A stretch of 64,000 bases of DNA from contig CAVTWJ010000011.1 in NCBI GenBank assembly GCA_963738405.1, positions 27,903-91,902 on the forward strand. The letters are read 5' to 3'. Positions 12-53,008 of the stretch are shown here, in pieces (position 1 is the first letter of the stretch; every line of letters starts with the position of its first letter). Below the pieces are notes generated by a model. The model searched no databases, had not been told where the DNA came from, and was given only the letters and a program-made list of their open reading frames with translations. Made by a program: the position numbers and the translations under genes. This stretch comes from a candidate division FCPU426 bacterium. GTDB taxonomy: Bacteria; Oederibacteriota; Muellerivitia; Muellerivitales; Muellerivitaceae.

Positions 12-2600
12 GTGACCGCGTCGCCCCAACAGCAGGGGTCGGTTTACATGCTCTTAAGGGTGAACGCGGGGGTCACCACGGGAACGGTTATTTCCAACGC
101 GGTTACGGGCATCGCCAACGGCATCGGGACGGTTATTTCCAATACCGCCACGGCCGTCGTGGGACCCAACCTGAGTATCGCCAAGTCCGAGTCGGAAATT
201 TTGGGAAGCTTGGGCGATTCGGTTACCTACCACCTCAATTGGTCGGTTTCGGGAGAAACCCTGGGGTTGATTGACACTTACGATTATTTGTCGGGCGGGA
301 TTACCAACATTATAGGAGCGGATGGGACTTCCTATACTTCCTACAGCGGGCCGGTGAGCTGGAGTTCGTGGATCTCGACCAATTCGAACGTGTTCCTTGA
401 AGCCTTCGGTTCTGGGGTGACGGGTTACCTGCTTCGAAACGCCCCCATCACGCTGTATGGCAATTACGCCATGTTTGGAAATGTTTATTTAGACCCAAAT
501 GACAATCCCTCCAATGCCGGGATGGTGCTTGCGGCCGACGCAACCAACCAAAACGCCTATGTGGCGGGTCTTTCGGGTTCGGCCAACCCCGGGAACCTTT
601 ATTTGCAAAAGATCACTTCGGGAAACACTTCCAACATCCTCGGGTCTATCAATAACGCTACCCTGCCCACCACGGTGGGGTCGGGCAATTGGTACAGCCT
701 CGAAGCCTATGTGGGCAGCAGCGGCGTCACCGGAAGCCCTGTTAGCATTTACCTAAAAACCTACCAAAGGGGCCAACCCCCGCCATCCAACTGGGCGATC
801 ACCGTGGTGGATAACAGTCCCCTCCCTACCGCCGGGGTCGTCTATCAAGCGGGTTGGCAGGCATCTGGAAGCAGCGCCGTTTCTGGCCTGGGCGCTTTCG
901 ACAATTTGCAGGTTTATTTACCCAATGCCCCGGTCAGCACCAATATTGTGGATACCCTGCCAACGGGTATGACTTATGTTAGCTCGATCCCAGCGGCCCC
1001 GGTTACCTCACCCGAGGTTGCTTGGAATTTCCCACCCACCATTTATGGAGGGATGGGTAATTACACCCTTGTGGCGCAGGTCACAACCCCATGCCAAGGA
1101 ACGATTGTTAACCAGGCTTCGATCAACGCCTCAAACTCTCTTTCGGGCTTTTCGAACCCGGTGACACTTACCATTGCCTGCCCGAACACGCCCACCAACA
1201 CCATGACGGTCACGCCCACGCAAACGATGACCGCCACCCCGACCGCGACCTTGACCTTCACGCAGACGGCAACCTCCACCAATACACAGACCGCTACGCC
1301 CACCTTTACTCAAACAGCCACACCGACCTTTACGCAGACTGTCACGCCAACTTTCACCCAAACCGCCACGCCCACGTTTACACAGACGGCAACCACCACC
1401 TTTACGCAAACGGCTACCCCCACGAGCACCCAGACTGCTACCCCGACCGTTACCAAGACAGCGACTCTGACTTTCACGCAGACGGCCACACCCACCTATA
1501 CACAGACGGCGACCCCGACCTCCACGCCAACACAAACCCCAACCAATACCCAGACTTTGGTTTTTACCCCGACGGTCACTAGGACCTTTACGACGACCGC
1601 GACTCCTACATTCACCCAAACGGCAACCCCCACCTTTACCCAAACCGCCACGTCCACCTTCACACAAACGGCGACCCTCACCTTTACGCAGACAGCGATC
1701 CCAACGGTTACTAAGACCGCCACACAAACATCCACACCCACTTCCACTCAAACCGCTACTCCAACTTTCACGCAAACCGCGACGCCTACTGTTACCAAAA
1801 CGGCTACCTTGACCTTTACACCAACCTTGACCTCCACGGTTACGCAGACAGCCACAACCACAAGCACACCGACCAACACGGGTACCTTCACCTCGACCTT
1901 TACCACTACTTCCACGTCTACGAATTCGCCAACCGTGACTGCGACCTTTACTTTCACCTCAACGCCAACGACGACTCCTACGAAAACACAGACGGCAACC
2001 CTTACCGCTAGCCCAACTCAAACCGCCACTTTCACCCAAACATCCACCTTCACGGCCGTATTTACCTCTACCCCCACTTGGACCCCATCCCCCACCAATA
2101 GCCCCACGGCAACCTTTACCCCTTCCAATACCCCCACTTGGACCCCCAGCTTTACCGTGACCTGGACTAACACCCCCACCCAAACCCCTACGCTTACTTT
2201 CACCTCATCGCCAACGCAAACCAATACCGTGACCTTTACGCCAACCATTACCTTTACTCCCACTATTACCCTGTCGCCCACCCCCACCGGGTCAGTCACT
2301 AATACTCCCACACCCGATGTGCCCATGTACCTGTCGGATAACTTTTTCAACCCGACTACTGGGGCCACTTTGGGAATAGATGTGCTGGTGGGGCAGGGCG
2401 GGGAAGTAAAGATCATCGTTTACAACATGCTGGCGGAAGAGGTGGATAAGCTAGTGGATCAAAGTCTTAACCCCGGCAGTTTCCATTTCACTTGGGATGG
2501 GCGCAATAGTTTTGGGAATTTAGTGGGGAACGGCGTTTATTTGGTTTTGATTGAACAACCCTCGGGCAATTTCACGAGAAAAGTAATCGTCTTAAAATAG
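12..2600 (+). CDS. Large secreted Thr-rich protein, 5'-truncated (DUF11-like Ig domains, TxT linker, FlgD/T9SS-like CTD)
   Basis: Frame is open to the window edge. DUF11-like motifs (LSIAKS..GDSVTY; IVDTLPTGMTYVSS), a long TFTQTATP linker (~1185-2310) and C-terminal NFFNP..WDGRNSFGNLVGNGVYLV..RKVIVLK. Confidence 0.8.
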   Translation: MTASPQQQGSVYMLLRVNAGVTTGTVISNAVTGIANGIGTVISNTATAVVGPNLSIAKSESEILGSLGDSVTYHLNWSVSGETLGLIDTYDYLSGGITNIIGADGTSYTSYSGPVSWSSWISTNSNVFLEAFGSGVTGYLLRNAPITLYGNYAMFGNVYLDPNDNPSNAGMVLAADATNQNAYVAGLSGSANPGNLYLQKITSGNTSNILGSINNATLPTTVGSGNWYSLEAYVGSSGVTGSPVSIYLKTYQRGQPPPSNWAITVVDNSPLPTAGVVYQAGWQASGSSAVSGLGAFDNLQVYLPNAPVSTNIVDTLPTGMTYVSSIPAAPVTSPEVAWNFPPTIYGGMGNYTLVAQVTTPCQGTIVNQASINASNSLSGFSNPVTLTIACPNTPTNTMTVTPTQTMTATPTATLTFTQTATSTNTQTATPTFTQTATPTFTQTVTPTFTQTATPTFTQTATTTFTQTATPTSTQTATPTVTKTATLTFTQTATPTYTQTATPTSTPTQTPTNTQTLVFTPTVTRTFTTTATPTFTQTATPTFTQTATSTFTQTATLTFTQTAIPTVTKTATQTSTPTSTQTATPTFTQTATPTVTKTATLTFTPTLTSTVTQTATTTSTPTNTGTFTSTFTTTSTSTNSPTVTATFTFTSTPTTTPTKTQTATLTASPTQTATFTQTSTFTAVFTSTPTWTPSPTNSPTATFTPSNTPTWTPSFTVTWTNTPTQTPTLTFTSSPTQTNTVTFTPTITFTPTITLSPTPTGSVTNTPTPDVPMYLSDNFFNPTTGATLGIDVLVGQGGEVKIIVYNMLAEEVDKLVDQSLNPGSFHFTWDGRNSFGNLVGNGVYLVLIEQPSGNFTRKVIVLK

Positions 2601-3570: not shown

Positions 3571-3591
3571 TTACTTTTGAGAAAGCCATTC

Positions 3592-4577: not shown

Positions 4578-5837
4578 ATGACCCAAGCCATCCGAAAACC
4601 TAGGGTTCTCCTCGGCGTAACTGGCAGTGTGGCCGCCTACAAAGCGGTTGAACTGATTAAGGCGCTGAAACCCCATGCCGAAGTGCGGGTCGTGGCCACC
4701 AAATCCGCAAGTCAACTGGTTCCTCTTTCGGCGTTGAAGAAGACTTCCGGATTTCCCGTTTGGAGCAGTTTGTTTTCGGGATCAACCCCCATTCCTCCCG
4801 GAACGCCCAGCGGCACCCACCCTTCCGCCACTGTTCCCCATATCGAATACGCCAAGCAGGCCGATTTGATTCTCATCGCGCCTGTCACGGCCAACTTCAT
4901 GGCCAAGCTGGCTTTAGGCATCGCCGACGATCTTCTCTCTTCCCTCTGCCTATACGCCGAATGCCCCCTATGGCTTGCCCCGGCCATGAACGTGAATATG
5001 TGGAACCACCCCGCGACCCGTCAAAACACCGGTGTTCTTCGCAAAAGAGGCGTTCGATTTCTCGGCCCGGATAAGGGCTACTTGGCCTGCGGGGATGTGG
5101 GGGAGGGAAGATTCGCGGAACCTTTGGAGATCGCCCTTCAGGTGCAAAAACATTTTGAGAAAAATGGAACTTGGCGGGGTTTGAGAGTTTTGGTGACCGC
5201 AGGTCCCACTCATGAAGCGCTGGACCCGGTAAGGGTATTAACCAATCACTCCAGCGGCAAGATGGGCTACGCGTTGGCCCAGGCGGCCTTGAACCGCGGC
5301 GCCCAAGTGACGCTGGTGCATGGTCCTGTTTCCCTCGCGCCTTTGACGAGGTCCAAAATGGTATCGGTTACCACCGCGCTTCAAATGAGGTCCGAAGTTT
5401 TAAAAGCCCTTCCCAATACCGATCTGGTCATTATGGCGGCGGCGGTCGCGGATTATCGCCCGGCCCAACAGGCATCGAGTAAGATCAAAAAAATAAAATC
5501 GAATTTCCATATACAACTCACAAAAAACCCAGACATTTTAAGCGAAGTACTCAAGCGCCGAAAACCTAAGCAGGTCATCATGGGATTCGCCGCCGAAACG
5601 GACCATCTACTCGCTCGGGCCGGCGAAAAGTGGAGTCGAAAGCCCTGCGACATTCTCGCGGCCAACCAAGTTGGGAAGGGCAAAGCTTTCGGAACAGACC
5701 AAAATGAACTCAGGGTGTTTTCGAGGTTAAGCCAAAAGCCCCTAAAAATGGGGCCCGCGACGAAAGCTAAACTTGCGGAAGATCTTTTGGATTTGGCGGT
5801 GAAATTATTAAAACCCGGGCCTAAGGGTCATTCGTGA
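4578..5837 (+). CDS. coaBC: Bifunctional phosphopantothenoylcysteine decarboxylase/ligase
   Basis: LGVTGSVAAYKA, PAMNVNMW, LACGDVGEGR, VTAGPTHEALDPVR.LTNHSSGKMG, GFAAET. Confidence 0.97.
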   Translation: MTQAIRKPRVLLGVTGSVAAYKAVELIKALKPHAEVRVVATKSASQLVPLSALKKTSGFPVWSSLFSGSTPIPPGTPSGTHPSATVPHIEYAKQADLILIAPVTANFMAKLALGIADDLLSSLCLYAECPLWLAPAMNVNMWNHPATRQNTGVLRKRGVRFLGPDKGYLACGDVGEGRFAEPLEIALQVQKHFEKNGTWRGLRVLVTAGPTHEALDPVRVLTNHSSGKMGYALAQAALNRGAQVTLVHGPVSLAPLTRSKMVSVTTALQMRSEVLKALPNTDLVIMAAAVADYRPAQQASSKIKKIKSNFHIQLTKNPDILSEVLKRRKPKQVIMGFAAETDHLLARAGEKWSRKPCDILAANQVGKGKAFGTDQNELRVFSRLSQKPLKMGPATKAKLAEDLLDLAVKLLKPGPKGHS

Positions 5838-7540
5838 AAATTCACATTTTTTGCTTATTGGCACTGACGGCAGGGACTGTTTTAGCGCAAGAATTGCCCA
5901 ATCTGAATGGAAAACCTCTTTTTGTTCCGGGTGAAATTCTGGTTCGGCTCAAGAACGGAATTGTTGAGGCGGACAAGTCCCGTGTTTTAGGCGCGAAAGC
6001 ACTGACTTCGACTACCTTTGAACCGGCAACTGGGGTTTACCGTATGGAGTTGGGGTCGGGGGAAGATGTTCGAGCCAGGGTTGATCTGCTGAAGAATGAT
6101 CCCGCAGTGGATTTAGCCCAGCCCAACTATTACTACTATGCGTCGGCATGTGATCCTACCACTGTAATGGATACCTACTATGCCGCTCCATACTATTGGC
6201 CACTCCAGAAAATATCAGCTCCCCAAGCATGGAACCTGTTCTCGAATTGTTCACTTTCGCCGACCGGCAGTGCTGTCACAATAGCGATTTTAGACACGGG
6301 TTTTTATGGTTCTCACCCTGATTTTTCTACTTTGGCTCCTGGGCCTGTTACCAATTGTATTTCCGATCAAGCGTCGAATGATGTTAGCGATAAATTTGGT
6401 CATGGTACCTACGTTGCGGGAATTATCGCGGCCCAATGGGGCATTTCATCGGGATACTCTTGTCCGTCCTCGGGTTTTACCACAGGCATGAAAGGGTTGT
6501 CTCCCAATGTTGTTTTGATGCCGATACGTGTTCTCGACGCCTGCGGAAGAGGAACCTCGGCTCAAATCGCGGCCGGCACCCTCTTTGCGGTCAATCATGG
6601 CGCGCGCGTGCTCAATTTTTCACTCGGCGGGGCTGGGACCGACAGCTTGGAACAGGGTGCCATCCAACAGGCCTTATCGTCCGGCTGTGTGGTGGTAGCG
6701 GCAGCGGGAAACGAATCGAATCTCCCCCAATCGGTCGCTCCTATAAATTATCCGGCGGCCTATCCAGGCGTCATCTCGGTCGGAGCCACGGACGCCAATG
6801 ACAAGGTGGCCTTTTATTCGAACGGCGGTACGGGGTTAGACCTGGTGGCTCCAGGAGGATCCGCGGTGACGGGGTCTTCTGTCTCTATTCTTGCGGCATC
6901 GGACATTTTCAGTACCCTACTTTGCCCTCTGCCGGCTCCATGCCCGGGGGTAAAATCATCCGATTTTATTGAGGATCCCTCGACTCCTTTTGGCGTGGCT
7001 TCTGGAACCTCCGCGGCTGCTCCCTATGTCACGGCGACGGCGGCGCTGATCTTTTCAATGTATCCCAATATGACCAATACGCAGGTGGCGGATGCCATCA
7101 TCAACAATACCGATAGTCTCAATAACAACACCGGCTGGGACGCTCAATCGGGCTATGGCCGGTTGAATGTTTTTAAAGCTCTCCTCAATGCTCAAAGTTC
7201 CATGGGGCAAATCACTACCTACCTCAAGACCTTTAACAGCCCTAACCCCTTTTATCCAGACGCGACCCCCCCCACCAATATCACCCTCGTCATGTCATCT
7301 CCCCGACCCGTGGACCTCACTATCCGTGATTCGGGAGGAGAATTGGTTTTCCATAAAAGTTTCCCAGTGAGCGGCTTGAACAATAATCCCGCTAACCCCC
7401 AATTCAAATCCTATTACGTTTCCTGGGATGGAAGAAACGCTTCCGGCCAATTGGTGAATACCGGAGTTTATTTTTATTCCGTTACCTCCGGGGGCGTGAC
7501 AGGAAGAAACAAGATTGCCGTTGTTCGAGGCAACCCATGA
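5834..7540 (+). CDS. Secreted S8 (subtilisin-like) peptidase with FlgD/T9SS-like CTD
   Basis: Signal peptide; triad motifs ILDTG, GHGTYVAGII, SGTSAAAPYV; AAAGNE; C-terminal SPNPF..WDGRNASGQLVNTGVYFY..KIAVVR. Confidence 0.92.
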   Translation: MKIHIFCLLALTAGTVLAQELPNLNGKPLFVPGEILVRLKNGIVEADKSRVLGAKALTSTTFEPATGVYRMELGSGEDVRARVDLLKNDPAVDLAQPNYYYYASACDPTTVMDTYYAAPYYWPLQKISAPQAWNLFSNCSLSPTGSAVTIAILDTGFYGSHPDFSTLAPGPVTNCISDQASNDVSDKFGHGTYVAGIIAAQWGISSGYSCPSSGFTTGMKGLSPNVVLMPIRVLDACGRGTSAQIAAGTLFAVNHGARVLNFSLGGAGTDSLEQGAIQQALSSGCVVVAAAGNESNLPQSVAPINYPAAYPGVISVGATDANDKVAFYSNGGTGLDLVAPGGSAVTGSSVSILAASDIFSTLLCPLPAPCPGVKSSDFIEDPSTPFGVASGTSAAAPYVTATAALIFSMYPNMTNTQVADAIINNTDSLNNNTGWDAQSGYGRLNVFKALLNAQSSMGQITTYLKTFNSPNPFYPDATPPTNITLVMSSPRPVDLTIRDSGGELVFHKSFPVSGLNNNPANPQFKSYYVSWDGRNASGQLVNTGVYFYSVTSGGVTGRNKIAVVRGNP

Positions 7541-8529
7541 AGGATTTTGTTTCAATGGGGCTGGCGTTTTTTTTCCTGATATTTGGATTTTTACCTACGG
7601 CACTTTTGGCTTCGGGCGGTCAAAGGCCCGATGCTTACCTGGAATATGGAGTGGGAGGGGTCCCTGAAGCCATGGCAGGGGCCGCGGCCGCCTCCAGGGA
7701 CGATCCTTCCTGCGGGTTTTGGAACCCCGCGGGTTTAACCGGAATTAAAAATATCGAGGTCGAGGCGCAGAATTCTTTTCTTTCGCTCAATCAGACGTTG
7801 GATTATTTCTCCATCGGCGCGAACCTTCAGGACAAGATTTACTGCGGGTTAACGCTCCTGGCTTACAGCGCGGGAAACGATTTGGAAGCGCGGAGCGGTC
7901 CCTCCTTGAATCCGGATAGTGCTTTCGGGGATTCGGAAATTGCGGGCCTGGTTTCTGGTGCCTTTCGCTTGAGTCCCAGATGGTCGGCGGGGTTCAACCT
8001 AAAACTTCTTCTCAATAGCTTGGGCTCTATTCAAAACGCTGGAGGAACCGGTTTTGGGTTTGATCTGGGACTGCAATATCGAGTCGATAACGACACAACC
8101 CTTGGTCTTGCCGCCCAGGACCCCTACACGGTTTTCACTTATCAAAATTCAATTACGACTGTCATTCCCATGACCTTGCGTTGCGGGGTGAATCGTTGGG
8201 TCGAGAGCCTTCAAGGGACGGGCGCCTTTGATTTGGAATGGAGTCAGGACCTTGGGTTTAGGCCCCGACTTGGCTTGGAATGGTTTCCGTTTGAAATTTT
8301 GGCTCTTCGGGGAGGGGCTTGGCTCGGCGATTTGACCTCGACTGGAACCGGGGCCCAGCCCAATCTCAACTTGACTTGTGGTGTTGGCTTTATTATTCCT
8401 CTTCATTCTTCAATGTTGGTTAGAAATTCCGAATCCGACCAGATTCTCATTGATTATTCGCTTTTGCCTGACCCTCAAGTGACCGGAGCGGTTCTTCAGC
8501 AGATAGCGGTTTCAGGAAAGTTTAATTAG
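7537..8529 (+). CDS. PorV/PorQ-like (UPF0164/FadL-like) outer-membrane beta-barrel
   Basis: YLEYGVGG..EAMAGA....DD....FWNPAGL N-terminal motif, GFDLGLQY, terminal Phe; ATGA overlap with the S8 gene. Confidence 0.8.
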   Translation: MKDFVSMGLAFFFLIFGFLPTALLASGGQRPDAYLEYGVGGVPEAMAGAAAASRDDPSCGFWNPAGLTGIKNIEVEAQNSFLSLNQTLDYFSIGANLQDKIYCGLTLLAYSAGNDLEARSGPSLNPDSAFGDSEIAGLVSGAFRLSPRWSAGFNLKLLLNSLGSIQNAGGTGFGFDLGLQYRVDNDTTLGLAAQDPYTVFTYQNSITTVIPMTLRCGVNRWVESLQGTGAFDLEWSQDLGFRPRLGLEWFPFEILALRGGAWLGDLTSTGTGAQPNLNLTCGVGFIIPLHSSMLVRNSESDQILIDYSLLPDPQVTGAVLQQIAVSGKFN

Positions 8530-9498: not shown

Positions 9499-12400
9499 AT
9501 GGCTTTCATGACGCGGCTTAAGTTACCTATCCCAGTCCTTTTGACTACTTTTTTATTGGGGTTTGCCCAGTTTTCCCTCCACGCCCAGTGCCTTGTCTCG
9601 GATACTTTTAATAACGAAATCTCACCTTCTTGGTCCGTGTCGGAAATAGGAGCCGCCACAGGTGGCGCCACGGTCCTGGGTTCGGCATTGACGTTAACAA
9701 GCACCGATCCTGGAATGCCGGGAGGCGTTGGAACGGTGTCGGACTCTTTTTATTATCTTTATCAATCTTCAACCGGTGATCCGGAAGTAACACTTCAAAT
9801 TGACACCATGCCGTCCACAAGTGGAGCGCTATTGGGTTTGATGTTTCGAAATAGTCCGGATGCCGGGGATGTTTTTGCCTTTGTGGGCGCCTCAACAACC
9901 TCAGCGGGCTCCGGCAAATTTTTTATGATGTCACGAATAGTCCCAGACGGTGATACAAGCTTTAATACCATTGGTGGCAATTGGACGAATGGATCTCCCG
10001 TTTATGTCCGGATGGTCAAGGCGGGCTCCTCATTTAACGCTTACTATTCCATTGATGGCAGTGCGTGGAGCAATCTAACGACCGTCAGCCCGAACTTCAA
10101 TTCATCGCCTTTCGAGGTTGGAGTGGCGCTGGCCTCAGCCAATACCATCACCGGCGATACCGGTTCGGTAAGCAACTTCAATGTTTTATCTGGGTTTTGT
10201 ACCCCGACGCCTACTTTGACGTTGACACCCTCACCATCTCCCACGGCTACTCCTTCTCCCACGAATTCCATAACCGATACCTTTACTTTAACCCAAACCC
10301 CGACTTTCACCTTGACGCAGACACCAACCGACACTACGACATTCACAACAACGCCGACGCCGTATGTTTTAAGCGTGGCGACAGTAACCGGAACTCCGGC
10401 CGATTCGACGCAGATACCCGGGACTCAAAACGTGGGGATCATGCAGTTCAGCGTGAACAACCCGGGAACTGCCGGGACGACGATATTTGGGTTTGTCTTG
10501 CAGTCGGTGGGGGACGGCGCCCAGATTTCGGAGGTCAATCTTCTGCAAGGAGGGGTTGGAGGGTCGCCTTTGGTGAGTAAGGCTTACGGCGGGTCGGGCT
10601 TGGTGACCTTGGGCGGAGGGCCATTGACGGTGTTGGGTAATGGGACGGTGACTTATGGTGTGAGCTATAACTTCCAGCCGAACGCTTCAACGGGCAGCTA
10701 CAGTGTTTCATTGACAGGTTTAAGGGGTTTGGATGATACAGGACAAGTACTGCAAGTGAATGGGGCGCCCCTTGGAGGCGCCATGATTAATATTGTTCTG
10801 CCAACCTCGACTCCAACGGCCACTCCGACCGCTACCTTAACCACCACCCCCACCTACACCCTTACCGATACATCTACTTTTACCAAGACTGAAACCCAAA
10901 CCTTTACGGAAACTCCAACCCCAACGGATACATTGACTTGGACCCAGACCCAAACACCTATTGACACACCGACCTTTACGCAAACGGCCACACCAACCTT
11001 TACACAGACTGCAACCCCCACGGATACGCAGACCGCTACGCCGACTTTTACGCAAACCGCCACACCAACGGAAACACAGACGGCCACTCCGACAGATACA
11101 CCGACTGCGACAGCAACCTTTACGCAGACGGCGACCCCGACCTTTACCCAGACTGAAACCCCGACCTTTACGCAGACCGCCACGCCTACCTTCACGCAAA
11201 CGGCCACCACGACCTCGACGGCGACGGTGACGCCGACGGTGGCACTGGCGCTTTCGTGGAACAATCAACCGGTCAGTCAGACCTATCTTTTCAATCAGAC
11301 CAACGTTTCAAGCCTGCAGTTGGTGCTTACCTCCACGGCGCAGGAGAACGTGGTAGTGAAGCAGTTGGCGTTTACGGGCGGGGGGAGCCTGAACTGGAGC
11401 ACGGACGTGGTGGCGGGGAGCGTGAGGCTGTACCAGGACGCCTCGGGGAATGGGCTTTATTCCGCGGGGACGGACACACTTCTCATGGGAGGACAGAGTT
11501 TCAACGCATCGGGGTCGGTGACCTTCCAGAACGTTAACGGGGTAACGGCGCCCTTGGCGTCGGGAGCGCCCCAGACTTTCCTGCTGGTATTTGACCTGAA
11601 TATGTCGGGATTGGCGACCAAGAACTTCTCGAACCTTTTGGCGAATTCCGGGATCACGGCCAATGGGCAGACAACGGGCCAGGCGGCCATCCTGTCGGGA
11701 GGGCCGGTCGGAGGGATTCTGCACACGGTATCGGCCGCGACGGCGACGCCGACGGTGACAACCACCTCGACGCCGACTGCAACAGCAACCTTTACGCAGA
11801 CGGCAACTCCTACGGATACCCAGACGGCCACGCCCACTCATACACAGACAGAGACGCCTACGTTCAGCCAAACGGCCACTCCTACGACGACACCGACCTT
11901 TACGCAAACCGCTACCTCTACGGATACACCAACGGCGACACAGACCTTTACCCAGACGGCGACCCCAACGGATACATTGACTTGGACCCAGACCCAAACA
12001 CCTACTGACACACCGACCTTTACGCAAACGGCCACACCAACCTTTACACAGACTGCAACCCCCACGGATACGCAGACCGCTACGCCGACTTTTACGCAAA
12101 CCGCCACACCAACGGAAACACAGACGGCCACTCCGACAGATACACCGACTGCGACAGCAACCTTTACGCAGACGGCGACCCCGACCTTTACCCAGACTGA
12201 AACCCCGACCTTTACGCAGACCGCCACGCCTACCTTCACGCAAACGGCCACCACGACCTCGACGGCGACGGTGACGCCGACGGTGGCACTGGCGCTTTCG
12301 TGGAACAATCAACCGGTCAGTCAGACCTATCTTTTCAATCAGACCAACGTTTCAAGCCTGCAGTTGGTGCTTACCTCCACGGCGCAGGAGAACGTGGTAG

Positions 12401-38797: not shown

Positions 38798-38798
38798 C

Positions 38799-43800: not shown

Positions 43801-44722
43801 CACCAATACCTTTACCCACACCAACACGCCGGTACCGCCGACTGCCACCTTCACGCCCACGCCTTCCGGGGCGGCGGCCTTGACCGTGGAACTGTTGTCG
43901 TCGATCACGGCCGATTCCACCAACAGCCCCCATCCTTTCATCGAGGTGGTCAATACCGGGAGCGGGTCCTTGAACCTGAACAACGTGGAAGTGCGCTATT
44001 GGTTCAACTGCGATTGCACCAACCAAAGCATCCAAACCTGGGTGGATTGGGCGGGGTTGATGCCCGCGGGGACTTCGGTGACGAATGACGTGTTGCACAC
44101 CACCGTAGCCACCAGCCAGGGCGGCCAGACCGACTACATCAGCTACAAGTTCACGGGCAACCTGGTGCTGCAGCCTGGGCAGGCTATCCAGATCCAGAGC
44201 CGGTTCAACAAGAGCGACTGGAGCAACATGCTCCAGGACAACGACTGGAGCTACGCGGCCTACACCAGCTACACCCCAGCGACCAAGGTCACAGCCTATG
44301 AGGGCGGGTCCCTGGTTTGGGGCCAAGAACCTTCCGGCTCCTCAGCGGCCTTGAAGGCGGCCAGCGTGATCGCCTACCCGAACCCCTCCACGGGGAACGG
44401 GGTAAACCTGGCGGTTAATTTGTCGGGTAACGGCACGGGCAGCTCCAATGCCAGCGCCAAGGCGCTGGGTTCGTCGGATGGAGAGGGAATTGATCCGAAC
44501 GCCGAGGTCACCCTCAAGGCCTATACCATCGACGGACGTCTGATCTGGTCGACCACGGTTTCAGGAGCTTCCATCGGGTCCACCGGCAACCATTCGGTTT
44601 ATTGGAACGAGAAGAACTACGTGGGGAATTACCTGGCCAACGGGCTTTACATCGTGACCTGCACGGTGAAATCCCAGGGCCAGACCAGCACCGCCACCTC
44701 TAAATTATTGATCCTGAGGTAG
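40847..44722 (+). CDS. Modular clan GH-A glycoside hydrolase: GH - Ig - malectin - P/T linker - CBM3 - CTD
   Basis: RWPGGSYAD, YWEIGNE, MTEYNS; WSWTGPNGF Ig; malectin (RVNAGG, LYDTQRYG, Y.VTLKFAE, RVFNV); CBM3 (VVNTGS..LNLNNVEVRYWF, IQSRFNKSDWSN..QDNDWSY); YPNP..KLLILR. Confidence 0.9.
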   Translation: MKSIKTALKGLFILLLGGNLSALYAQANITVNASSVVTTIPSEIYGTNMSTYTSSNNGSDPAYVTAMQVSGSRNIRWPGGSYADFVNWNDLQCQGNFEVTTPEYISFLQKFGGQMQAIVNFSGKWCGTQYTHAQAVSLAAAWVSWNLTNTGSARAKYWEIGNEVYGSWETGGQGSAGSTLTGTVYGNYFADYYKAMKAVDPTILIGAVASPGASDYSNWTPRLLTAAKAAGVVPDFLIIHNYPDGATGTGSAFDATMLSYASLPANFTSSLNSLVSSNVGSSYVGQVKYFMTEYNSGGPSGPNVQCDEYINAMFVSQWIMECAKNGWIGANLWAAKNGGTPDYAFINTSTDAPFPDYYMFPMLTGKFGAGMVSCSSSNSSVRSYASKDSAGNLTLFMVNNNPTTSMPANVTVSGFTPASSGHAWVMLPSGTSSSGAPQEAPSISINGNVNPAPANLASIAGVAQTTGSTFTVNLQPSEMALIVIPPTGGTPQPTPTNTPCTPTAIIPYLQVNAGTWQQASSVTVSAGATVNLGPQPVTGGTWSWTGPNGFTSTSREIDNIPLGAGNNTFTATYTNACGLKTTQTFTITVQSAPTATFTFTPTSAAPTATFTHTPTPTSTPTPIVSSSWRVNAGGPAYTDTTSNIWASDENFSGGSVASGGAVTGTSDSTLYDTQRYGNSFSYSFFVPAGSYQVTLKFAETYSGDFSAGARVFNVAVNGSTVLSNLDVYAQVGANTADDKLINNVSPSGGIITIQFTGGSSTDTNAMVEAIQVIPQPATPTFTNTPTRTSSATGTPTATSTATRTSTATFTFTPTVTSTATASRTSTAVPPTATNTAIPPTSTFTSVPATATATNSPVPPTVTNTPAPPSPTVSQTPTNTYTFTGTVTNTPAPPTATNTAAPPTFTFTDTPVPPTTTDSMTPTASLTVTPTNSPVPPTVTNTPVPPTVTNTPAPPTVTSTSTAVPPSPTVSQTPTHTYTFTGTATFTNTFTHTNTPVPPTATFTPTPSGAAALTVELLSSITADSTNSPHPFIEVVNTGSGSLNLNNVEVRYWFNCDCTNQSIQTWVDWAGLMPAGTSVTNDVLHTTVATSQGGQTDYISYKFTGNLVLQPGQAIQIQSRFNKSDWSNMLQDNDWSYAAYTSYTPATKVTAYEGGSLVWGQEPSGSSAALKAASVIAYPNPSTGNGVNLAVNLSGNGTGSSNASAKALGSSDGEGIDPNAEVTLKAYTIDGRLIWSTTVSGASIGSTGNHSVYWNEKNYVGNYLANGLYIVTCTVKSQGQTSTATSKLLILR
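42347..43440 (+). repeat. ~1.09-kb near-identical block (Ig-malectin-linker) repeated at 45910-47003
   Basis: Constant offset 3563; only three substitutions noticed by eye. Confidence 0.92.
43826..44697 (+). repeat. ~0.87-kb near-identical block (CBM3-CTD) repeated at 47275-48146; more diverged copy at ~52180-53000
   Basis: Constant offset 3449; encoded CBM3-CTD nearly identical in the two proteins. Confidence 0.92.
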
Positions 44723-44850
44723 GGAAAAGCTCGAAATTTGCCACAAGAATCGAAGAGAAATAAATGAAGATTTTTACTTTTGAATCAAGACAAGGTTGAA
44801 AAAGGGAGTCGCTAATAACGGGTTTAGAAACGAACTAGGGGAGGTTGAAG

Positions 44851-47800
44851 ATGAAAATATTCAAAGCCGTGCTGCCGGGACTCGTGATCCTATTGTTGGG
44901 GGCGAACGTTTCAGCGCTATACGCCCAAACCATTCCCACCTCGTTCTCATGGACATCGACCGGCCCTATCATCAGCGCCAAGAGCGACGCCACCCACAAT
45001 ATAGTCTCGGTCAAGGACCCATCAACCGTTTACTACAACGGCCAGTGGATCGTTTACGCCTCCAATGCTAACTCCGCTGGCGGCTGGGGCATGGAATACC
45101 TGCACTTCACCGACTGGAGCCAGGCCGGTGCCGCAACACCCTACTTCATGGATGACAACCCCAACTTCTCGGGCTATCACACCGCGCCGCAAGTGTTCTA
45201 TTTCGCCCCGCAGAACAAGTGGTACCTGATCTTCCAGAGCGGCCAGCCTCAGTATTCCACCAACAGCGACCCCACCCAGCCCCAGAACTGGACCGCTCCA
45301 AGGAATTTCTTCGCCTCGCAGCCCTCGAATGTGAGCGCTTGGCTCGATTTCTGGGTCATCTGCGATTCCACCAATGCCTACCTGTTCTTCTGCGGCGACA
45401 ACGGAAACTTCTACCGCAGCTCAACCCCCCTCGCGAACTTTCCCAACGGCTTCAGCGATCCCACTATCGTCTACTCGGAAGCCAATTCCGCCAATCTCTT
45501 CGAGGCCGACAATGTCTATACCGTCGAGGGGACCGGTATGTACCTGGCTAACATCGAGTGCATGGGTCCCAATGGGCACCGCTTCTTCCGGGCCTTGACC
45601 GCGACCAGCCTCGGCGGCGCCTGGACCCCGCTCGGCAATACGTTAAGTTTCAATACCCCGTTTTTGGGATTGGACAACGTTACCTTTCAATCCGGTGTCA
45701 CAACCTGGACCGACGACTTCAGCAGCGGCGGGGCGCTCATCGACGGCAATGACCAAACCGATCCGATCAACATCAACAACCTTCAGTTTCTCTACCAGGG
45801 CGTCAATCCAAATGTTCATGTCACGTCCTACGCACTGCTTCCCTACCAACTCGGCCTGGCGACCTCAAACGCCAACAAGCCCACTAGCCCGACCCCGACC
45901 CCCGGCTGCACACCCACCGCCATCATCCCTTACCTTCAAGTGAACGCGGGGACATGGCAGCAGGCCAGCAGCGTTACCGTAAGTGCGGGCGCGACGGTCA
46001 ACCTGGGACCCCAGCCCGTGACTGGCGGCACCTGGAGTTGGACCGGCCCCAACGGTTTTACCTCCACTTCGCGGGAGATCGACAACATCCCCTTGGGCGC
46101 CGGCAACAACACCTTCACGGCGACCTACACGAACGCCTGCGGCCTCAAGACCACGCAAACCTTCACCATCACGGTGCAATCCGCGCCGACGGCCACTTTC
46201 ACCTTTACGCCCACCTTGGCGGCGCCTACAGCCACCTTTACCCATACCCCCACCCCGACTTCCACGCCGACTCCGATTGTGTCCTCCAGCTGGCGTGTGA
46301 ACGCCGGAGGCCCGGCCTATACCGATACCACGAGCAATATCTGGGCTTCGGACGAGAACTTTAGCGGCGGATCGGTGGCCAGCGGCGGGGCCGTGACCGG
46401 AACCTCCGATTCGACCCTTTACGACACCCAGCGCTACGGGAACAGTTTCAGCTATTCATTCTTCGTCCCTGCGGGCAGTTACCAGGTGACCCTGAAGTTT
46501 GCCGAGACCTATTCGGGCGACTTCTCGGCCGGAGCCCGTGTCTTCAACGTGGCCGTCAACGGGTCCACCGTGCTTTCCAACCTGGACGTTTACGCCCAGG
46601 TGGGCGCCAACACGGCGGACGACAAGCTGATCAACAACGTGTCGCCCAGCGGAGGAATCATTACCATCCAGTTCACGGGAGGGTCCAGCACGGACACGAA
46701 CGCCATGGTGGAAGCCATCCAGGTCATTCCCCAGCCCGCCACGCCTACCTTTACGAATACACCGACGAGAACCTCGTCGGCCACGGGTACACCTACGGCA
46801 ACGTCCACGGCCACTCGTACCTCGACGGCTACCTTTACCTTCACCCCGACGGTGACCAGTACGGCGACCGCGAGCCGGACCAGTACAGCGGTGCCGCCTA
46901 CCGCGACGAATACGGCAATCCCGCCGACTTCGACCTTCACCTCGGTGCCTGCCACAGCGACCGCTACCAACAGCCCGGTACCGCCAACCGTGACCAATAC
47001 GCCGCTGCCTCCGACTGTGACGAATACCCCGGCCCCACCTACTGTCACAGACACACCAATGCCCCCGACGCCAACTGGAACCAGCACGCCCGTTCCCCCC
47101 ACGGCGACGGATTCGATGACGCCTACGGCGTCCCTCACCGTTACGCCAACAAATAGTCCTGTGCCACCGACTGTTACCAGTACCAGCACGGCGGTTCCAC
47201 CGAGTCCAACGGTCTCCCAAACCCCAACCCATACCTATACGTTTACTGGGACGGCTACCTTCACCTTTACCAATACGCCGGTACCGCCGACTGCCACCTT
47301 CACGCCCACGCCTTCCGGGGCGGCGGCCTTGACCGTGGAACTGTTGTCGTCGATCACGGCCGATTCCACCAACAGCCCCCATCCTTTCATCGAGGTGGTC
47401 AATACCGGGAGCGGGTCCTTGAACCTGAACAACGTGGAAGTGCGCTATTGGTTCAACTGCGATTGCACCAACCAAAGCATCCAAACCTGGGTGGATTGGG
47501 CGGGGTTGATGCCCGCGGGGACTTCGGTGACGAATGACGTGTTGCACACCACCGTAGCCACCAGCCAGGGCGGCCAGACCGACTACATCAGCTACAAGTT
47601 CACGGGCAACCTGGTGCTGCAGCCTGGGCAGGCTATCCAGATCCAGAGCCGGTTCAACAAGAGCGACTGGAGCAACATGCTCCAGGACAACGACTGGAGC
47701 TACGCGGCCTATACCAGCTACACCCCAGCGACCAAGGTCACAGCCTATGAGGGCGGGTCCCTGGTTTGGGGCCAAGAACCTTCCGGCTCCTCAGCGGCCT

Positions 47801-48171
47801 TGAAGGCGGCCAGCGTGATCGCTTACCCGAACCCCTCCACGGGGAACGGGGTGAACCTGGCGGTTAATTTGTCGGGTAACGGCACGGGCAGCTCCAATGC
47901 CAGCGCCAAGGCGCTGGGTTCGTCGGATGGAGAGGGAATTGATCCGAACGCCGAGGTCACCCTCAAGGCCTATACCATCGACGGACGTCTGATCTGGTCG
48001 ACCACGGTTTCGGGGGCTTCCCTGGGATCGACGGGGAACCACACGGTCTATTGGAACGAGAAAAACTACGTGGGGAATTACCTGGCCAACGGGCTATACA
48101 TCGTGACCTGCACGGTGAAATCCCAGGGCCAGACCAGCACCGCCTTATCCAAAATTCTAATCCTAAAATGA
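44851..48171 (+). CDS. GH62 alpha-L-arabinofuranosidase - Ig - malectin - linker - CBM3 - CTD
   Basis: SFSWTSTGP, VKDPS.VYYNG.W, APQVFYFAPQNKWYL.FQ, LDFWVICD..YLFF..DNG..YRS, LFEA.NVY, FLYQG..P..Y..LPY.LGL. Confidence 0.93.
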   Translation: MKIFKAVLPGLVILLLGANVSALYAQTIPTSFSWTSTGPIISAKSDATHNIVSVKDPSTVYYNGQWIVYASNANSAGGWGMEYLHFTDWSQAGAATPYFMDDNPNFSGYHTAPQVFYFAPQNKWYLIFQSGQPQYSTNSDPTQPQNWTAPRNFFASQPSNVSAWLDFWVICDSTNAYLFFCGDNGNFYRSSTPLANFPNGFSDPTIVYSEANSANLFEADNVYTVEGTGMYLANIECMGPNGHRFFRALTATSLGGAWTPLGNTLSFNTPFLGLDNVTFQSGVTTWTDDFSSGGALIDGNDQTDPININNLQFLYQGVNPNVHVTSYALLPYQLGLATSNANKPTSPTPTPGCTPTAIIPYLQVNAGTWQQASSVTVSAGATVNLGPQPVTGGTWSWTGPNGFTSTSREIDNIPLGAGNNTFTATYTNACGLKTTQTFTITVQSAPTATFTFTPTLAAPTATFTHTPTPTSTPTPIVSSSWRVNAGGPAYTDTTSNIWASDENFSGGSVASGGAVTGTSDSTLYDTQRYGNSFSYSFFVPAGSYQVTLKFAETYSGDFSAGARVFNVAVNGSTVLSNLDVYAQVGANTADDKLINNVSPSGGIITIQFTGGSSTDTNAMVEAIQVIPQPATPTFTNTPTRTSSATGTPTATSTATRTSTATFTFTPTVTSTATASRTSTAVPPTATNTAIPPTSTFTSVPATATATNSPVPPTVTNTPLPPTVTNTPAPPTVTDTPMPPTPTGTSTPVPPTATDSMTPTASLTVTPTNSPVPPTVTSTSTAVPPSPTVSQTPTHTYTFTGTATFTFTNTPVPPTATFTPTPSGAAALTVELLSSITADSTNSPHPFIEVVNTGSGSLNLNNVEVRYWFNCDCTNQSIQTWVDWAGLMPAGTSVTNDVLHTTVATSQGGQTDYISYKFTGNLVLQPGQAIQIQSRFNKSDWSNMLQDNDWSYAAYTSYTPATKVTAYEGGSLVWGQEPSGSSAALKAASVIAYPNPSTGNGVNLAVNLSGNGTGSSNASAKALGSSDGEGIDPNAEVTLKAYTIDGRLIWSTTVSGASLGSTGNHTVYWNEKNYVGNYLANGLYIVTCTVKSQGQTSTALSKILILK

Positions 48172-48697: not shown

Positions 48698-51600
48698 ATG
48701 GGGAGATCAAACCGCAAGCTTGCGTCGTTGGCTGTGGCCTGTCTGCTGTGGATATGCTTGGGAAACGGTTCCTTGAAAGCGCAGGTCAGTTCGGTTTGGA
48801 CTTACCATTACGACAACGCCCGGACGGGAATCAACCCCAACGAAACGATCCTCAATCCAACCAACGTCAACCCCAACAGTTTTGGAAAGCTTTTCTCCTA
48901 TTCCGTCGATGGCAAGCTTTACGGGCAGCCTCTTTACGTCGCGGGGGTTACCGTCAACGGGGCTGTCCATAATGTCGTTTATGCGGTCACCATGCATGAC
49001 AGTGTTTATGCCTTCGACGCGGATAACAACCAAGGGGCGAACGCCAACCCCTTGTGGCATGTCAGTTTTCTTGGCACGGGAGCTGCGGTCACCCAGTCTG
49101 TTTCCTCCTCCATTGCCGGTTGTTCCGACACCCAGCCTGAATTCGGAATCCTAGGCACACCCGTCATCGATACTACGACCGGGACGATTTACCTGGTGGA
49201 CAATGTCCAGATCGTTTCCGGGGGCAATACCACCTATGCGGGCCATCTTCATGCCCTGGATATTTCCACCGGGGCTGAAAAATTCAACGGCCCGACCCTG
49301 ATTTCGGGCATAGCCGGCGGGCAGAGTTTTAACGCCCGCCAGGAAATCAATCGGCCCGGGTTATTTCTGCTGAATGGGGAAGTCTATGCGACCTTCGGGT
49401 CCCATTGCGATGACAGGCCTTACCAAGGCTGGGTCCTGGCCTACAACGCCGCGAATATAAGCCAGCAAACCCGCGTTTATTGCACCACTCCCAACGGCTC
49501 GGATGGGTCCATTTGGGAAAGCGGCTGCGCCCCGGGAATCGACGCGTCCGGGAATATTTTCGGGCTTGTCGCCAACGGAACCTTCGACGCGAATTCGGGC
49601 GGCCATGATTATGGGGACAGCTTCATCAAGATTTCGACCGCCGGGGGCGGCTTGTCCGTCTCCGATTACTTCACGCCCTACAACCAAGCCACCCTCAGCG
49701 CCGATGACTCGGACCTCGGGGCGAGCGGCCATATCCTTCTTCCGGATTCCTTCGGAAGCGCGGCCCACCCCCATCTCATCACCGGCTCGGACAAGACATC
49801 GGATATTTACCTGGTGGACCGGGATAATATGGGGAAATACAACGGGAGTTTTAACACCTCCCTCCAGAACTTCAACAACGGCGGGAGCGGTTACTCGGTT
49901 CCGGCCTGTTTCAGCAATGGAACCACCCACTGGGTTTATTGGGGAATGGTGAATGAACCTCTTAAGGCCTACACCCTTTCCAATGCTTCGTATAACACCA
50001 CTCCCTCCTCGCGGACCAGCACCACCTTTTCCTTTCCGGGCACCTCGCCCAGCGTTTCTTCCAACGGCACCGCGAACGCCATTGTTTGGACCAGCCAGTT
50101 TGGATCCCCTGAAATTCTCCATGCCTATGACGCCACCAACCTCGCCACTGAACTTTATAATTCAAGCCAGGCGGCGAACAGCCGGGATGCCGCCGGCTCG
50201 GGCCAAAAATTCAATCCTCCCGTGGTCGCCAACGGGAAGGTCTATTACGCCGCCGCCAATGGTCTATACGTTTACGGGCTGTTAAACCAGGGCACTCCCA
50301 CCTTCACCCACACGCCGAATCCCTCGAATACCGTGACACCCACTCCGACCCCTTCATCCACACCGTCCTCAACTTTTACCCGCACCCAAACTCCGACAGC
50401 CACTTTCACCGCCACCCCGGTTGTAGCCGCCACCTGGCGGGTGAATTCCGGCGGCCCCGCCTATACGGACAACCTTGGAAACCTTTGGTCGGCCGATACC
50501 CAGTTTATTGGGGGGACGGCGGCCACCCAGGGCGGGGCCATCACGGGAACCTCCAACCCAACCCTGTATGACACCCAGCGCTACGGCGGCAGTTTCAGCT
50601 ATGTGTTCAACGTCCCCGCCGGGACTTACCAGGTCACCTTGCTGTTCGCGGAAACCTATTCCGGTGATTTCGCGGCCGGGGACCGGGTGTTCAACGTTTT
50701 GGCAAATGGCGTCACCGTTTTAGCGAATCTTGATATTTTCGCTAAAGTCGGGGCGAACACGGCATTGAACGAGGCGCTTAACAACATCGCGCCCAACGGG
50801 GGGGCCATCACGCTTCAATTCATGGGAACCCCCAGCAAGGACGCCAACGCGGTGGTGGAAGCCATCCAGGTTATTCCCCAACCCCAAACACCAACCTTCA
50901 CACCGACCTCCACAGCTACCCTGACGCCCACGTTCACCGCTACCGCCACACTGACGAATACCCCCACGCCGGTAGTGGCCGCCACCTGGAGGGTCAACGC
51001 AGGAGGGCCTACCTACACCGATACCACGAGCAATATCTGGGCGGCGGACGAGAACTTTAGCGGCGGGTCGGTGGCCAGCGGCGGGGCCGTGACCGGAACC
51101 TCCGACTCCACCCTTTACGATACCCAGCGCTACGGGAACAGTTTCAGCTATTCCTTCAACGTGCCTGCCGGGAACTACCAGGTGACCCTGAAGTTCGCCG
51201 AGACCTATTCGGGAGATTTTTCGGCCGGAGCCCGTGTCTTCAACGTGGCCGTCAACGGGTCCACCGTGCTTTCCAACTTGGACGTTTACGCCCAGGTGGG
51301 CGCCAACACGGCGGACGACAAGCTGATCAACAACGTGTCGCCCAGCGGAGGAATCATTACCATCCAGTTCACGGGAGGGTCCAGCACGGACACGAACGCC
51401 ATGGTGGAAGCTATCCAGGTCATTCCCCAACCCGCCACGCCTACCTTTACGAACACCCCCACGAAGACTTCGACCGCTTCCTTTACATCCACGGCCACCA
51501 CAACCAATACAGCCGTGCCGCCGAGTGCGACAGCCTCCCAAACTCCAACCAATACCTATACCCTTACTGGGACAGCCACGAATACGGCGGTTCCGGCTAC

Positions 51601-53008
51601 TGCTACCAATACGAATAGCCCCGTACCGCCGAGTGCGACAGCCTCCCAAACCCCGACCAATACTTATACGTTTACTGGGACCCTCACCAACACCCCGGTT
51701 CCGCCCAGTGCGACGGCCTCCCAAACTCCAACCAATACCGAAACCCTTACAGGGACGGCCACGGACACGCCGATGCCGCCTACGCTCACATTTACGGCCG
51801 TTAATACCGACACGCCTGCGCCGCCCACACTCACCTTTACCCCGACTTGGACGCCGTCCCCGACGCCGGTGCCTCCGTCTCCCACGGAGACGTCCACACC
51901 CACGCTGACCGCGACCTACACATGGACCATGACTCCGACGCCGTCAAACACACCGGCGCCACCGACACTGACATTGACGCCGACTTGGACACCGTCCCCA
52001 ACGCCGGTACCTCCGTCCCCCACGGGAACGCCCACGCGAACTGAAACGGTGACCCATACCTTTACCCTGTCCCCGACGGCGACGAACACCCCGCGACCCC
52101 CGACCGCAACCCTCACTCCCGTGCCGCCCACGCCTACTTTTACGGCGGTGACGGGCATGGGTTCCTTCACGGTCGATCTGCTTTCGTCGATCACGGCCGA
52201 TTCCACCAACAGCCCCCATCCCTTTATTGAGGTGGTTAACACCGGGAATGGGCCTGTGAACCTGAACAATGTGGAAGTGCGTTACTGGTTCAACTGCGAC
52301 TGCACCAACCAAAGCATCCAAACCTGGGTGGATTGGGCGGGGTTGATGCCTTCGGGAACCTCGGTCACGGGAGATGTCCTGCATACGGCCGTTTTCACCA
52401 GCCAGGGCGGCCAGACCGACTACATCAGCTACAAGTTCACGGGGAACCTGGTACTCCAGCCGGGGCAAGCGATCCAGGTGCAAAGCCGGTTCAACAAGAG
52501 CGACTGGAGCGGCATGCTCCAGGACAACGACTGGAGCTTCGCGCCCTATACCAGCTACACCCCCGCAACCCACGTGACCGGATACCTGAATGGGTCGTTG
52601 GTCTGGGGGCAGGAACCCATGGCGATTTCCGCGGGATTGAAGGCGGCAAGCGTGGTGGCCTATCCAAACCCCTCGACGGGGAACGGGGTGAACCTGGCGG
52701 TGAACCTGTCAGGGGCTGGAACGCTCAGCTCAAATGCAAGCGCCAAGGCCGTGGGATCGTCGGGAGAGGAAGGAATGGATCCGAACGCGCGAATAGTCCT
52801 GAAGGTTTACACCCTTGAGGGCCGGATGATCTGGTCGACGACGGTGTCCGGCGCTTCAGTGGGTACGGCGGGCAACCACGCGGTTTATTGGAACGAGAAG
52901 AGCCTGGCGGGGAGCTATCTGGCCAATGGGCTTTATATCGTGGTCGCCACTGTCAAGTCGCAAGGACAAACCACCACCGCTTCCTCCAAAATACTCATCC
53001 TGAAGTAA
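48698..53008 (+). CDS. PQQ-like beta-propeller - 2x malectin - P/T linker - CBM3 - CTD
   Basis: TYHYDNARTG.NPNE..L, GILGTPVID, LHALDI.TG.EK, D.DLGASG, KFNPPVVANGKVY; two malectin copies; CBM3; YPNP..KILILK. Confidence 0.88.
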   Translation: MGRSNRKLASLAVACLLWICLGNGSLKAQVSSVWTYHYDNARTGINPNETILNPTNVNPNSFGKLFSYSVDGKLYGQPLYVAGVTVNGAVHNVVYAVTMHDSVYAFDADNNQGANANPLWHVSFLGTGAAVTQSVSSSIAGCSDTQPEFGILGTPVIDTTTGTIYLVDNVQIVSGGNTTYAGHLHALDISTGAEKFNGPTLISGIAGGQSFNARQEINRPGLFLLNGEVYATFGSHCDDRPYQGWVLAYNAANISQQTRVYCTTPNGSDGSIWESGCAPGIDASGNIFGLVANGTFDANSGGHDYGDSFIKISTAGGGLSVSDYFTPYNQATLSADDSDLGASGHILLPDSFGSAAHPHLITGSDKTSDIYLVDRDNMGKYNGSFNTSLQNFNNGGSGYSVPACFSNGTTHWVYWGMVNEPLKAYTLSNASYNTTPSSRTSTTFSFPGTSPSVSSNGTANAIVWTSQFGSPEILHAYDATNLATELYNSSQAANSRDAAGSGQKFNPPVVANGKVYYAAANGLYVYGLLNQGTPTFTHTPNPSNTVTPTPTPSSTPSSTFTRTQTPTATFTATPVVAATWRVNSGGPAYTDNLGNLWSADTQFIGGTAATQGGAITGTSNPTLYDTQRYGGSFSYVFNVPAGTYQVTLLFAETYSGDFAAGDRVFNVLANGVTVLANLDIFAKVGANTALNEALNNIAPNGGAITLQFMGTPSKDANAVVEAIQVIPQPQTPTFTPTSTATLTPTFTATATLTNTPTPVVAATWRVNAGGPTYTDTTSNIWAADENFSGGSVASGGAVTGTSDSTLYDTQRYGNSFSYSFNVPAGNYQVTLKFAETYSGDFSAGARVFNVAVNGSTVLSNLDVYAQVGANTADDKLINNVSPSGGIITIQFTGGSSTDTNAMVEAIQVIPQPATPTFTNTPTKTSTASFTSTATTTNTAVPPSATASQTPTNTYTLTGTATNTAVPATATNTNSPVPPSATASQTPTNTYTFTGTLTNTPVPPSATASQTPTNTETLTGTATDTPMPPTLTFTAVNTDTPAPPTLTFTPTWTPSPTPVPPSPTETSTPTLTATYTWTMTPTPSNTPAPPTLTLTPTWTPSPTPVPPSPTGTPTRTETVTHTFTLSPTATNTPRPPTATLTPVPPTPTFTAVTGMGSFTVDLLSSITADSTNSPHPFIEVVNTGNGPVNLNNVEVRYWFNCDCTNQSIQTWVDWAGLMPSGTSVTGDVLHTAVFTSQGGQTDYISYKFTGNLVLQPGQAIQVQSRFNKSDWSGMLQDNDWSFAPYTSYTPATHVTGYLNGSLVWGQEPMAISAGLKAASVVAYPNPSTGNGVNLAVNLSGAGTLSSNASAKAVGSSGEEGMDPNARIVLKVYTLEGRMIWSTTVSGASVGTAGNHAVYWNEKSLAGSYLANGLYIVVATVKSQGQTTTASSKILILK

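Follow-up and report, generated by a model that had tools for sequence, protein, structure and literature searches.

What does it mean that genes for surface proteins are followed directly by genes for barrel proteins? This question is raised by a stretch of 64,000 nucleotides (hereafter the window) on contig CAVTWJ010000011.1 of a candidate division FCPU426 bacterium (assembly GCA_963738405.1). A first-pass annotation of the letters alone had seen here an export route similar to type 9 secretion (the T9SS), in which cargo proteins bearing a T9SS-like C-terminal domain (CTD) are coupled one by one to barrels related to PorV and PorQ. Three such pairs lie in the window at the places where they had been reported, on the + strand, with overlapping or abutting codons. 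The barrels had been called divergent, which holds for their sequence; cargo and barrel gene are co-directional in all three pairs.

The first pair begins with an S8 subtilase (5834..7540, +; PF00082, E 1.9e-47), which has a signal peptide and a CTD ending in KIAVVRGNP. An ATGA overlap joins it to a PorV-family barrel without a C-terminal tail (7537..8529, +), which scores 56 bits (E 4.5e-15) on the NCBIfam PorV_fam model NF033709 and stays under its cut-off of 90 bits. Orthologues of this barrel are present in 26 of the 31 family genomes. An S8-type tail is encoded upstream of it in 25/25 evaluable family loci, the window's own included (27 loci were fetched and two left out for too little upstream sequence). 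The second cargo is a giant surface protein of 2435 amino acids (9499..16806, +) with Thr/Pro-rich linkers between beta-sandwich domains and a repeated block of ~348 residues. Its CTD, ending in KVAVVK, scores 26.1 bits on TIGR04183 (cut-off 23) and is predicted to form a seven-stranded sandwich with a predicted local distance difference test score (pLDDT) of 94.8. A TAGTG overlap couples the giant gene to a PorV-family barrel with a tail of tetratricopeptide repeats (TPRs) (16806..18437, +; NF033709 99 bits), and this pair is kept in 22/22 family loci. In the third pair, a PA14-CBM9 protein (37190..38797, likely start 37346, +; PF07691, PF06452, weak PF18962) carries two sugar-binding modules, no catalytic domain and a short, hairpin-less CTD ending in VLAVFK. 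The ATG of its barrel (38799..40151, +; NF033709 107 bits) stands one base past the stop codon at 38797, and the barrel continues into a Pro-rich linker and one C-terminal TPR unit. C-terminal TPRs on two of the barrels are thereby borne out.

The barrel of the third pair is predicted to be 14-stranded (pLDDT 86). Its best fold match is PorV (6h3i_F; Z 31.3, root-mean-square deviation (rmsd) 4.0, 274 residues aligned), and Foldseek places PorV (E 7e-13) before FadL (E 2e-8). Profiles were built from the window's own CTD and barrel domains and run on the whole host genome (G000; 3.18 Mb, 90.7% complete), where they identify 18 PorV-family barrels. NCBIfam already names these barrels PorV/PorQ family; 11 of the 18 pass NF033709, and none passes the PorV or PorQ equivalog models or the PorP model. 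The best scores on the PorP/SprF model TIGR03519 are 36.6 and 21 bits against a cut-off of 90.55, the other 16 barrels giving no match at E 0.001, and the type-B (CHU_C) tail is represented in the window by one weak PF13585 match (16.8 bits, cut-off 27). With these scores and with tails that are type-A-like, a type-B/PorP identity of the pairs was rejected. The FadL model PF03349 reaches 29.1 bits over 47 residues in one window barrel (cut-off 29.7) and has no match in the other two.

The tails had been taken for type-A-like CTDs, and the comparison agrees with this. The best full-length PDB matches of the window's tail profile are the CTDs of PorZ (5m11) and PorU (6za2), at E 1e-7, other T9SS CTDs being weaker, and PorU is the first fold match of the giant's CTD (Z 11.5, rmsd 2.3, 90 residues aligned). 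Most individual tails remain below the curated CTD cut-offs, and signal peptides were judged by eye. In most tails 12 residues separate the Trp of strand 5 from the GxY motif. We read this spacing as the putative counterpart of an extra hairpin, a longer loop after strand 5, which is described for the uncleaved CTDs of PorU and PorZ; the hairpin does not by itself prevent CTD cleavage (both PMC11285876). The premise that type-A CTDs share one PorV is incomplete, as it omits PorZ-PorQ, a known dedicated pair in which PorQ retains PorZ (PMC5562754).

The whole host genome contains 75 open reading frames (ORFs) with a C-terminal CTD-like domain. Ten of the 18 barrels lie directly behind such a gene and an eleventh lies behind one of those barrels, an adjacency well beyond chance (binomial p 4.6e-12, with a background of 75 CTD ORFs in ~2915 genes). 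Seven of the ORFs (four anti-sigma factors and three atypical ones) were excluded before the tails were counted, which leaves 68 cargo genes, 10 with an adjacent barrel and 58 without. Pairing extends over the whole genome and is conserved, but with 58 of 68 cargo genes unpaired the proposal of one PorV-like barrel per type-A-like cargo is overstated; it is true of a minority only and was rejected as a rule. In three genomes from other families, barrels follow a CTD gene in 21/30, 21/30 and 18/30 cases (the best 30 of 36, 44 and 30 matches, respectively; one of the 18 pairs in the last genome is a weak truncated match). Paired and unpaired cargos of the host differ in architecture. Long Thr/Pro linkers are found in 52/58 unpaired and 5/10 paired cargos, and an Ala four residues before the end of the last strand is found in 7/10 paired and 3/58 unpaired tails (p 1.3e-5).

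Several barrels of the host stand in other contexts. Four PorV-family barrels are located within or at the end of a flagellar cluster (G000:C1:185503-189220 and C1:205872-209482), including a tandem of two behind a single CTD gene, and the paired barrel at G000:C13:41019 overlaps a histidine kinase gene. Two solo barrels (G000:C5:59132-60877 and C5:10219-12654) are fused to FlgD-Ig and OmpA peptidoglycan-binding domains and in this resemble a PorP-PorE anchor in fused form. Among the unpaired cargos, eight proteins (G000:C8, C10, C12:19284, C13:45354, C23:386359, C23:390630) carry three CTD-like domains in tandem at their C-terminus, the last one belonging to the short class. In another genome (G014, loci L222-L226) five near-identical barrels, mostly without an intact upstream CTD gene, appear to be a recent expansion or a mobile copy. 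The solo barrel at G000:C16:65501-66457 has the top score of all host barrels on the PorV models. It is single-copy in 28 genomes, with 58-87% identity in the 27 other genomes of the order, and no CTD gene lies within 1.5 kb of it in 28/28 loci; outside the order no orthologue was found at the threshold used. It is the best candidate for a shared carrier of the unpaired cargos, a role suggested by these features.

The translocon of such a system would be SprA/Sov, and the search for it in the host genome gave a single homologue (G000:C20:75216-81122, 1968 amino acids; TIGR04189 238 bits, cut-off 200). Its only significant PDB matches are to Flavobacterium johnsoniae SprA (6h3i, E 1e-20). SprA relatives are present in 93 of the 99 phylum genomes, and PorV-family barrels and CTDs in 99/99 each. 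Directly behind the host sprA lies a CTD gene of 1599 amino acids, and a similar gene ending in KVAVIK follows sprA in 5/5 related loci. A lipoprotein-like ORF of 353 residues (G000:C23:416473-417534) is a free-standing copy of one region of SprA, ~50% identical to residues 865-1174, and genome G070 has a similar one. Named SprA homologues include proteins of Ca. Firestonebacteria and Elusimicrobia. The SprA of G013, a genome from another order of the host's phylum, and one Ca. Firestonebacteria protein share 81% identity, so that the guess of a Firestonebacteria/FCPU426-like host holds at the level of the phylum, and an ordinary Bacteroidota host with a standard T9SS was rejected. Flagellar and lipid A genes were recognised in the host from their translations, and we infer its FCPU426/Goldbacteria affinity from PMC7031533. 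SprA, PorV-like barrels and type-A-like CTDs thus occur together in a non-Bacteroidota lineage, as had been anticipated.

The other known parts of the machinery could not be recovered. GldM and GldN gave no match in the 99 phylum genomes, even at E 0.001; a Parabacteroides record with sprA, tried as a control for GldM, gave no GldM match either, and since neither search had a working positive control the two are to be taken as not found rather than proven absent. GldK is over its cut-off in 0/99 genomes, with partial sub-cut-off matches in 37 genomes and none in the host. The best GldL match has E 0.06 in the host, the one genome searched for it. The genes around sprA include none that was recognised as motor-like, and the five host MotA/ExbB homologues (one flagellar, four with ExbD or TonB-like neighbours) all lie away from it. 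The PorU model NF033707 matches CTD regions only in the 90.7% complete host genome, PorZ was not found in it, and the C25 protease model PF01364, which matched 8/99 phylum genomes, has no match in the 31 family genomes. Within the FCB (Fibrobacteres-Chlorobi-Bacteroidetes) superphylum there is an earlier case of a gene set without the motor: passages of PMC7323717 report one Bacteroidetes 'incertae sedis' group in which Sov, PorV and PorQ are present and PorK-N absent.

Whether a barrel belongs to its own cargo can be judged best from the type of barrel found in the third pair, for which 20 regions with 21 barrels were chosen from 75 rows. A cargo gene adjoins 21/21 of these barrels, upstream in 14 and downstream in 7. 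At locus L254 the apparent upstream cargo is the end of a frameshifted anti-sigma gene and the real cargo lies downstream; of 30 upstream CTD matches for this barrel type in the locus survey, six are anti-sigma domains and not cargo. The passengers are of at least six kinds (PA14-CBM9, pectate lyase-malectin, DUF11-containing, NHL, propeller-type and tail only), and despite the change in passenger and gene order the tails keep a similar short form, mostly ending in VLAxxK or KFxVxR. Over four families, one barrel clade has short-tailed partners in 16/18 pairs, against 3/51 outside it (SH-like approximate likelihood ratio test (SH-aLRT) support of 98 in a quick tree; tail classes counted from the alignment). 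Of 204 comparisons across genomes, 38 place the nearest barrel and the nearest tail in one and the same pair, where 13.4 are expected.

The third pair also belongs to a larger gene group. It is preceded by an extracytoplasmic function (ECF) sigma factor (35937..36524, +; Sigma70_r2, r4_2), the first gene of the cassette, and by a membrane anti-sigma factor (36517..37161, +; PF13860, E 3e-13; a hydrophobic segment is seen in the sequence) with a C-terminal FlgD-Ig/CTD-like domain. Eight CTD-bearing proteins had been counted in the window, and eight ORFs do end in a CTD/FlgD-Ig-like domain; one of them is this anti-sigma factor behind its sigma gene, so the cargo count of the window is seven, of which four have no adjacent barrel. 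An ECF sigma/anti-sigma pair stands beside 19 of the 21 barrels of this type. The host has four such pairs in which the anti-sigma factor ends in a FlgD-Ig/CTD-like domain (window 35937-40151, G000:C14:195082-199168, C23:168851-171958 and C9:89041-90347). Three of these are accompanied by a PorV-TPR barrel and a cargo with a short tail, and in the C23:168851-171958 cassette the cargo is a signal peptide and tail alone, of 125 amino acids. The arrangement of sigma and anti-sigma factor, cargo and barrel is a candidate trans-envelope signalling cassette.

What is observed is that the genes are present, that they are homologous to those of SprA, PorV and type-A CTDs, that they are coupled, and that all this is conserved over the family and the phylum. 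The explanation that we favour, at a probability of about 0.6, is a T9SS-like system in reduced form, whose paired barrels would each bind the tail of their own cargo and keep that cargo at the cell surface. On the model of F. johnsoniae and Porphyromonas gingivalis, the cargo would cross the inner membrane by Sec and enter the SprA barrel; at the lateral gate a docked barrel of the PorV family would bind the CTD with its loops, and the complex would then leave the pore. The paired barrel could thereafter serve as the lasting anchor of the uncleaved cargo, as PorQ does for PorZ. Since no PorU-type sortase was found and most tails resemble the uncleaved CTDs of PorZ and PorU, the tail is likely to be kept. 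The 58 unpaired cargos, mostly large and Thr/Pro-linked, would rely on a single solo barrel, or a small number of them, in common, and the tails that the barrels extend into the periplasm (TPR, FN3, FlgD-Ig, OmpA) would likely fix the complex or signal from inside.

A number of results weigh against this explanation. The fold of the barrels is shared with a FadL homologue (Z 28.1) and with BamG-type barrels of the Bacteroidota beta-barrel assembly machinery (BAM) complex (Z 25-26), close behind PorV. The CTD is a common Ig-like sandwich, for which the Z of 11.5 with PorU is tied with Vpr and alpha-2-macroglobulin, and FlgD scores similarly to PorZ and PorU on the CTD profile, over part of its length. 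Barrel and tail similarity are uncorrelated in the ten host pairs (rho 0.04, p 0.39) and only modestly correlated in three other genomes (rho 0.19-0.40); such a correlation is also predicted by co-duplication of operons, to which part of the signal is due. The Ala signature does not hold generally: distant genomes have it in only 18/58 paired tails. The barrel tree is a quick one and the short-tail clade was picked after the labels had been seen; as paralogues are, moreover, not independent, the nominal p value overstates the case. No motor was found, yet Bacteroidota substrates stall on SprA without one (PMC10994853), and none of the four ExbB-type loci is linked to sprA.

These points are taken up in different ways by other explanations. 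The barrels could be channels of the FadL kind that take up small products of enzymes encoded nearby, with C-terminal domains that are FlgD-like Ig domains and not export tags. They share with FadL/TodX and with Treponema UPF0164, called PorV/FadL-like in PMC13749626, the 14-stranded barrel, the N-terminal NPA motif and weak profile matches to PF03349 and UPF0164, and FlgD matches the tail profile. Yet the barrel domain is shorter than in FadL/TodX (~290 amino acids), PorV stands above FadL in both fold searches, and PF03349 stays under its cut-off. In addition, the partners include non-enzymes and proteins of signal peptide and tail (125-128 amino acids), the domain stands at the extreme C-terminus of 75 ORFs, and the barrels are coupled to CTD genes in genomes in which SprA co-occurs throughout the phylum. 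We consider uptake channels very improbable; the first-pass annotation had itself named FadL channels without adjacency to CTD genes as the contrary case, and PorV outranks FadL while 10/18 barrels follow a CTD gene. It is also conceivable, though in our view quite unlikely, that pairing reflects co-expression only, interchangeable carrier barrels having been duplicated with a cargo gene without cognate specificity. The missing correlation among the host pairs and the 58 cargos without an adjacent barrel fit this idea, as does the binding of varied type-A CTDs by PorV through mainly hydrophobic contacts (PMC12618676). The excess of same-pair nearest neighbours across genomes speaks against it, and so does the tail class, which stays with its barrel clade over four families while passengers and gene order change.

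Another explanation keeps the export route and makes it ordinary: a complete T9SS whose GldL, GldM, GldK and GldN have diverged beyond detection, the pairs being dedicated shuttles in the usual energy chain. The host SprA is itself divergent, so smaller subunits could escape detection by hidden Markov models, neither the GldM nor the GldN search had a positive control, and in F. johnsoniae extraction from SprA needs energy (PMC10994853). The failure of GldM and GldN to match at E 0.001 in any of 99 genomes, the sub-cut-off GldK and GldL results, the want of a recognised motor-like gene beside sprA and the published Sov-PorV-PorQ set without PorK-N all make this unlikely, though less so than mere co-expression. 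Somewhat more plausible, but still doubtful as a general account, is that the TPR-tailed barrels are mainly trans-envelope receptors, the surface cargo sensing glycan and the barrel tail signalling to the anti-sigma factor. Besides the sigma and anti-sigma genes that adjoin 19/21 barrels of the clade, the PA14-CBM9 cargo with its two sugar-binding modules and no catalytic domain fits such a role, and glycosidase cargo genes come after the cassette. The S8 and giant pairs are left unexplained by it, two of the 21 loci have no sigma pair, and the contact between tail and anti-sigma factor is conjecture. For the third pair such signalling is compatible with the anchoring of cargo by its own barrel and does not exclude it.

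Compared with known systems, the anchoring of cargo by paired barrels is closest to PorZ-PorQ and PorU-PorV of P. gingivalis, in which a PorV-family barrel is tied to one CTD-keeping protein (PMC5562754). In contrast to the two machinery pairs there, ten pairs are present here and over twenty in relatives, with varied passengers; coupling of the host genes is head to tail, periplasmic tails occur on many of the barrels, and PorU and PorZ were not found. With SprA/Sov-PorV of F. johnsoniae (6h3i, 8gl6; PMC10994853) the host shares a single gene of the SprA family, barrels with the PorV fold and many proteins that have a signal peptide and end in a seven-stranded CTD. It differs in its shorter, divergent SprA (1968 vs 2403 amino acids), in having 18 PorV-family barrels with none over the PorV equivalog cut-off, in the undetected GldL, GldM, GldK and GldN, and in being flagellated and outside the FCB superphylum. 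The type-B CTD/PorP-SprF system (PMC12618676; PMC9143113) likewise links a cargo gene to its own barrel gene and lets orphan cargos share an orphan barrel. It reaches the cell wall through PorE, where the host has OmpA domains fused to two solo barrels, and it differs in its PorP barrels, those of the host being of the PorV/PorQ family with type-A-like tails.

The four unpaired cargos of the window lie at its beginning and behind the sigma cassette. The first (3..2600, +; ORF 12-2600; TIGR04183 21.7 bits) is the C-terminal part of a 2215-residue protein whose gene starts upstream of the window (G000:C11:23855), with DUF7948 and SBBP propeller repeats, a Thr/Pro linker and its CTD at 2310-2597. 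The other three combine malectin and CBM3 domains: one with a glycosidase-like N-terminus and a CTD ending in KLLILR (40757..44722, +), one with GH62 and a CTD ending in KILILK (44845..48171, +) and one with two malectin domains and the same KILILK ending (48698..53008, +). The predicted signal peptides of the proteins at 5834, 9499, 37346, 38799, 40757, 44845 and 48698 seem to end before Gln (e.g. AQ), which recalls the N-terminal pyroglutamate that is a habit of Bacteroidota. After the giant's barrel, and in the same orientation, the stretch 18320-22910 encodes a SpoIIE phosphatase/anti-sigma kinase fusion, a STAS protein and a TPR protein. Paralogous AraC-type regulators of ~600 amino acids stand beside glycan-enzyme cargo clusters at 57308-59140 and at G000:C14:199275-201089. 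The glycosidase-like gene 59360-61216 changes character near residue 500 and G+C goes up to 62-65% from ~60 kb to the contig end, which suggests a mis-join or foreign DNA.

T9SS genes have been stated to be absent outside the FCB phyla (2024, PMC11285876), and extraction from SprA is considered to require the GldLM motor (PMC10994853). Plant-cell-wall cellulases of Goldbacteria/FCPU426 are described in passages of PMC7031533 that name no secretion system, those of PMC12204202 hold nothing on this system, and a literature search, with most subscription papers and all supplements outside it, found no description of such a system in this lineage. The genomic case for the system is well supported, its function being read here from genes. 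More tentatively, and at less than even odds, we suggest that a phylum outside FCB has SprA-PorV-CTD export without the GldLM motor and the GldKN ring and mostly without a sortase, in which an expanded family of barrels would read an address code in the tails, anchor the cargo and, by their periplasmic parts, connect it with either the cell wall or an ECF sigma switch. If so, type 9 secretion would exist here in a naturally minimal and possibly ancestral form. The requirements of a minimal translocon become testable on a SprA-PorV-CTD core that spans the phylum and has no detectable motor, and dozens of natural cognate pairs would be a ready specificity series for how a PorV-type barrel tells CTDs apart. 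For the Goldbacteria/FCPU426 lineage itself, the system may be the route by which its plant-cell-wall enzymes are exported.

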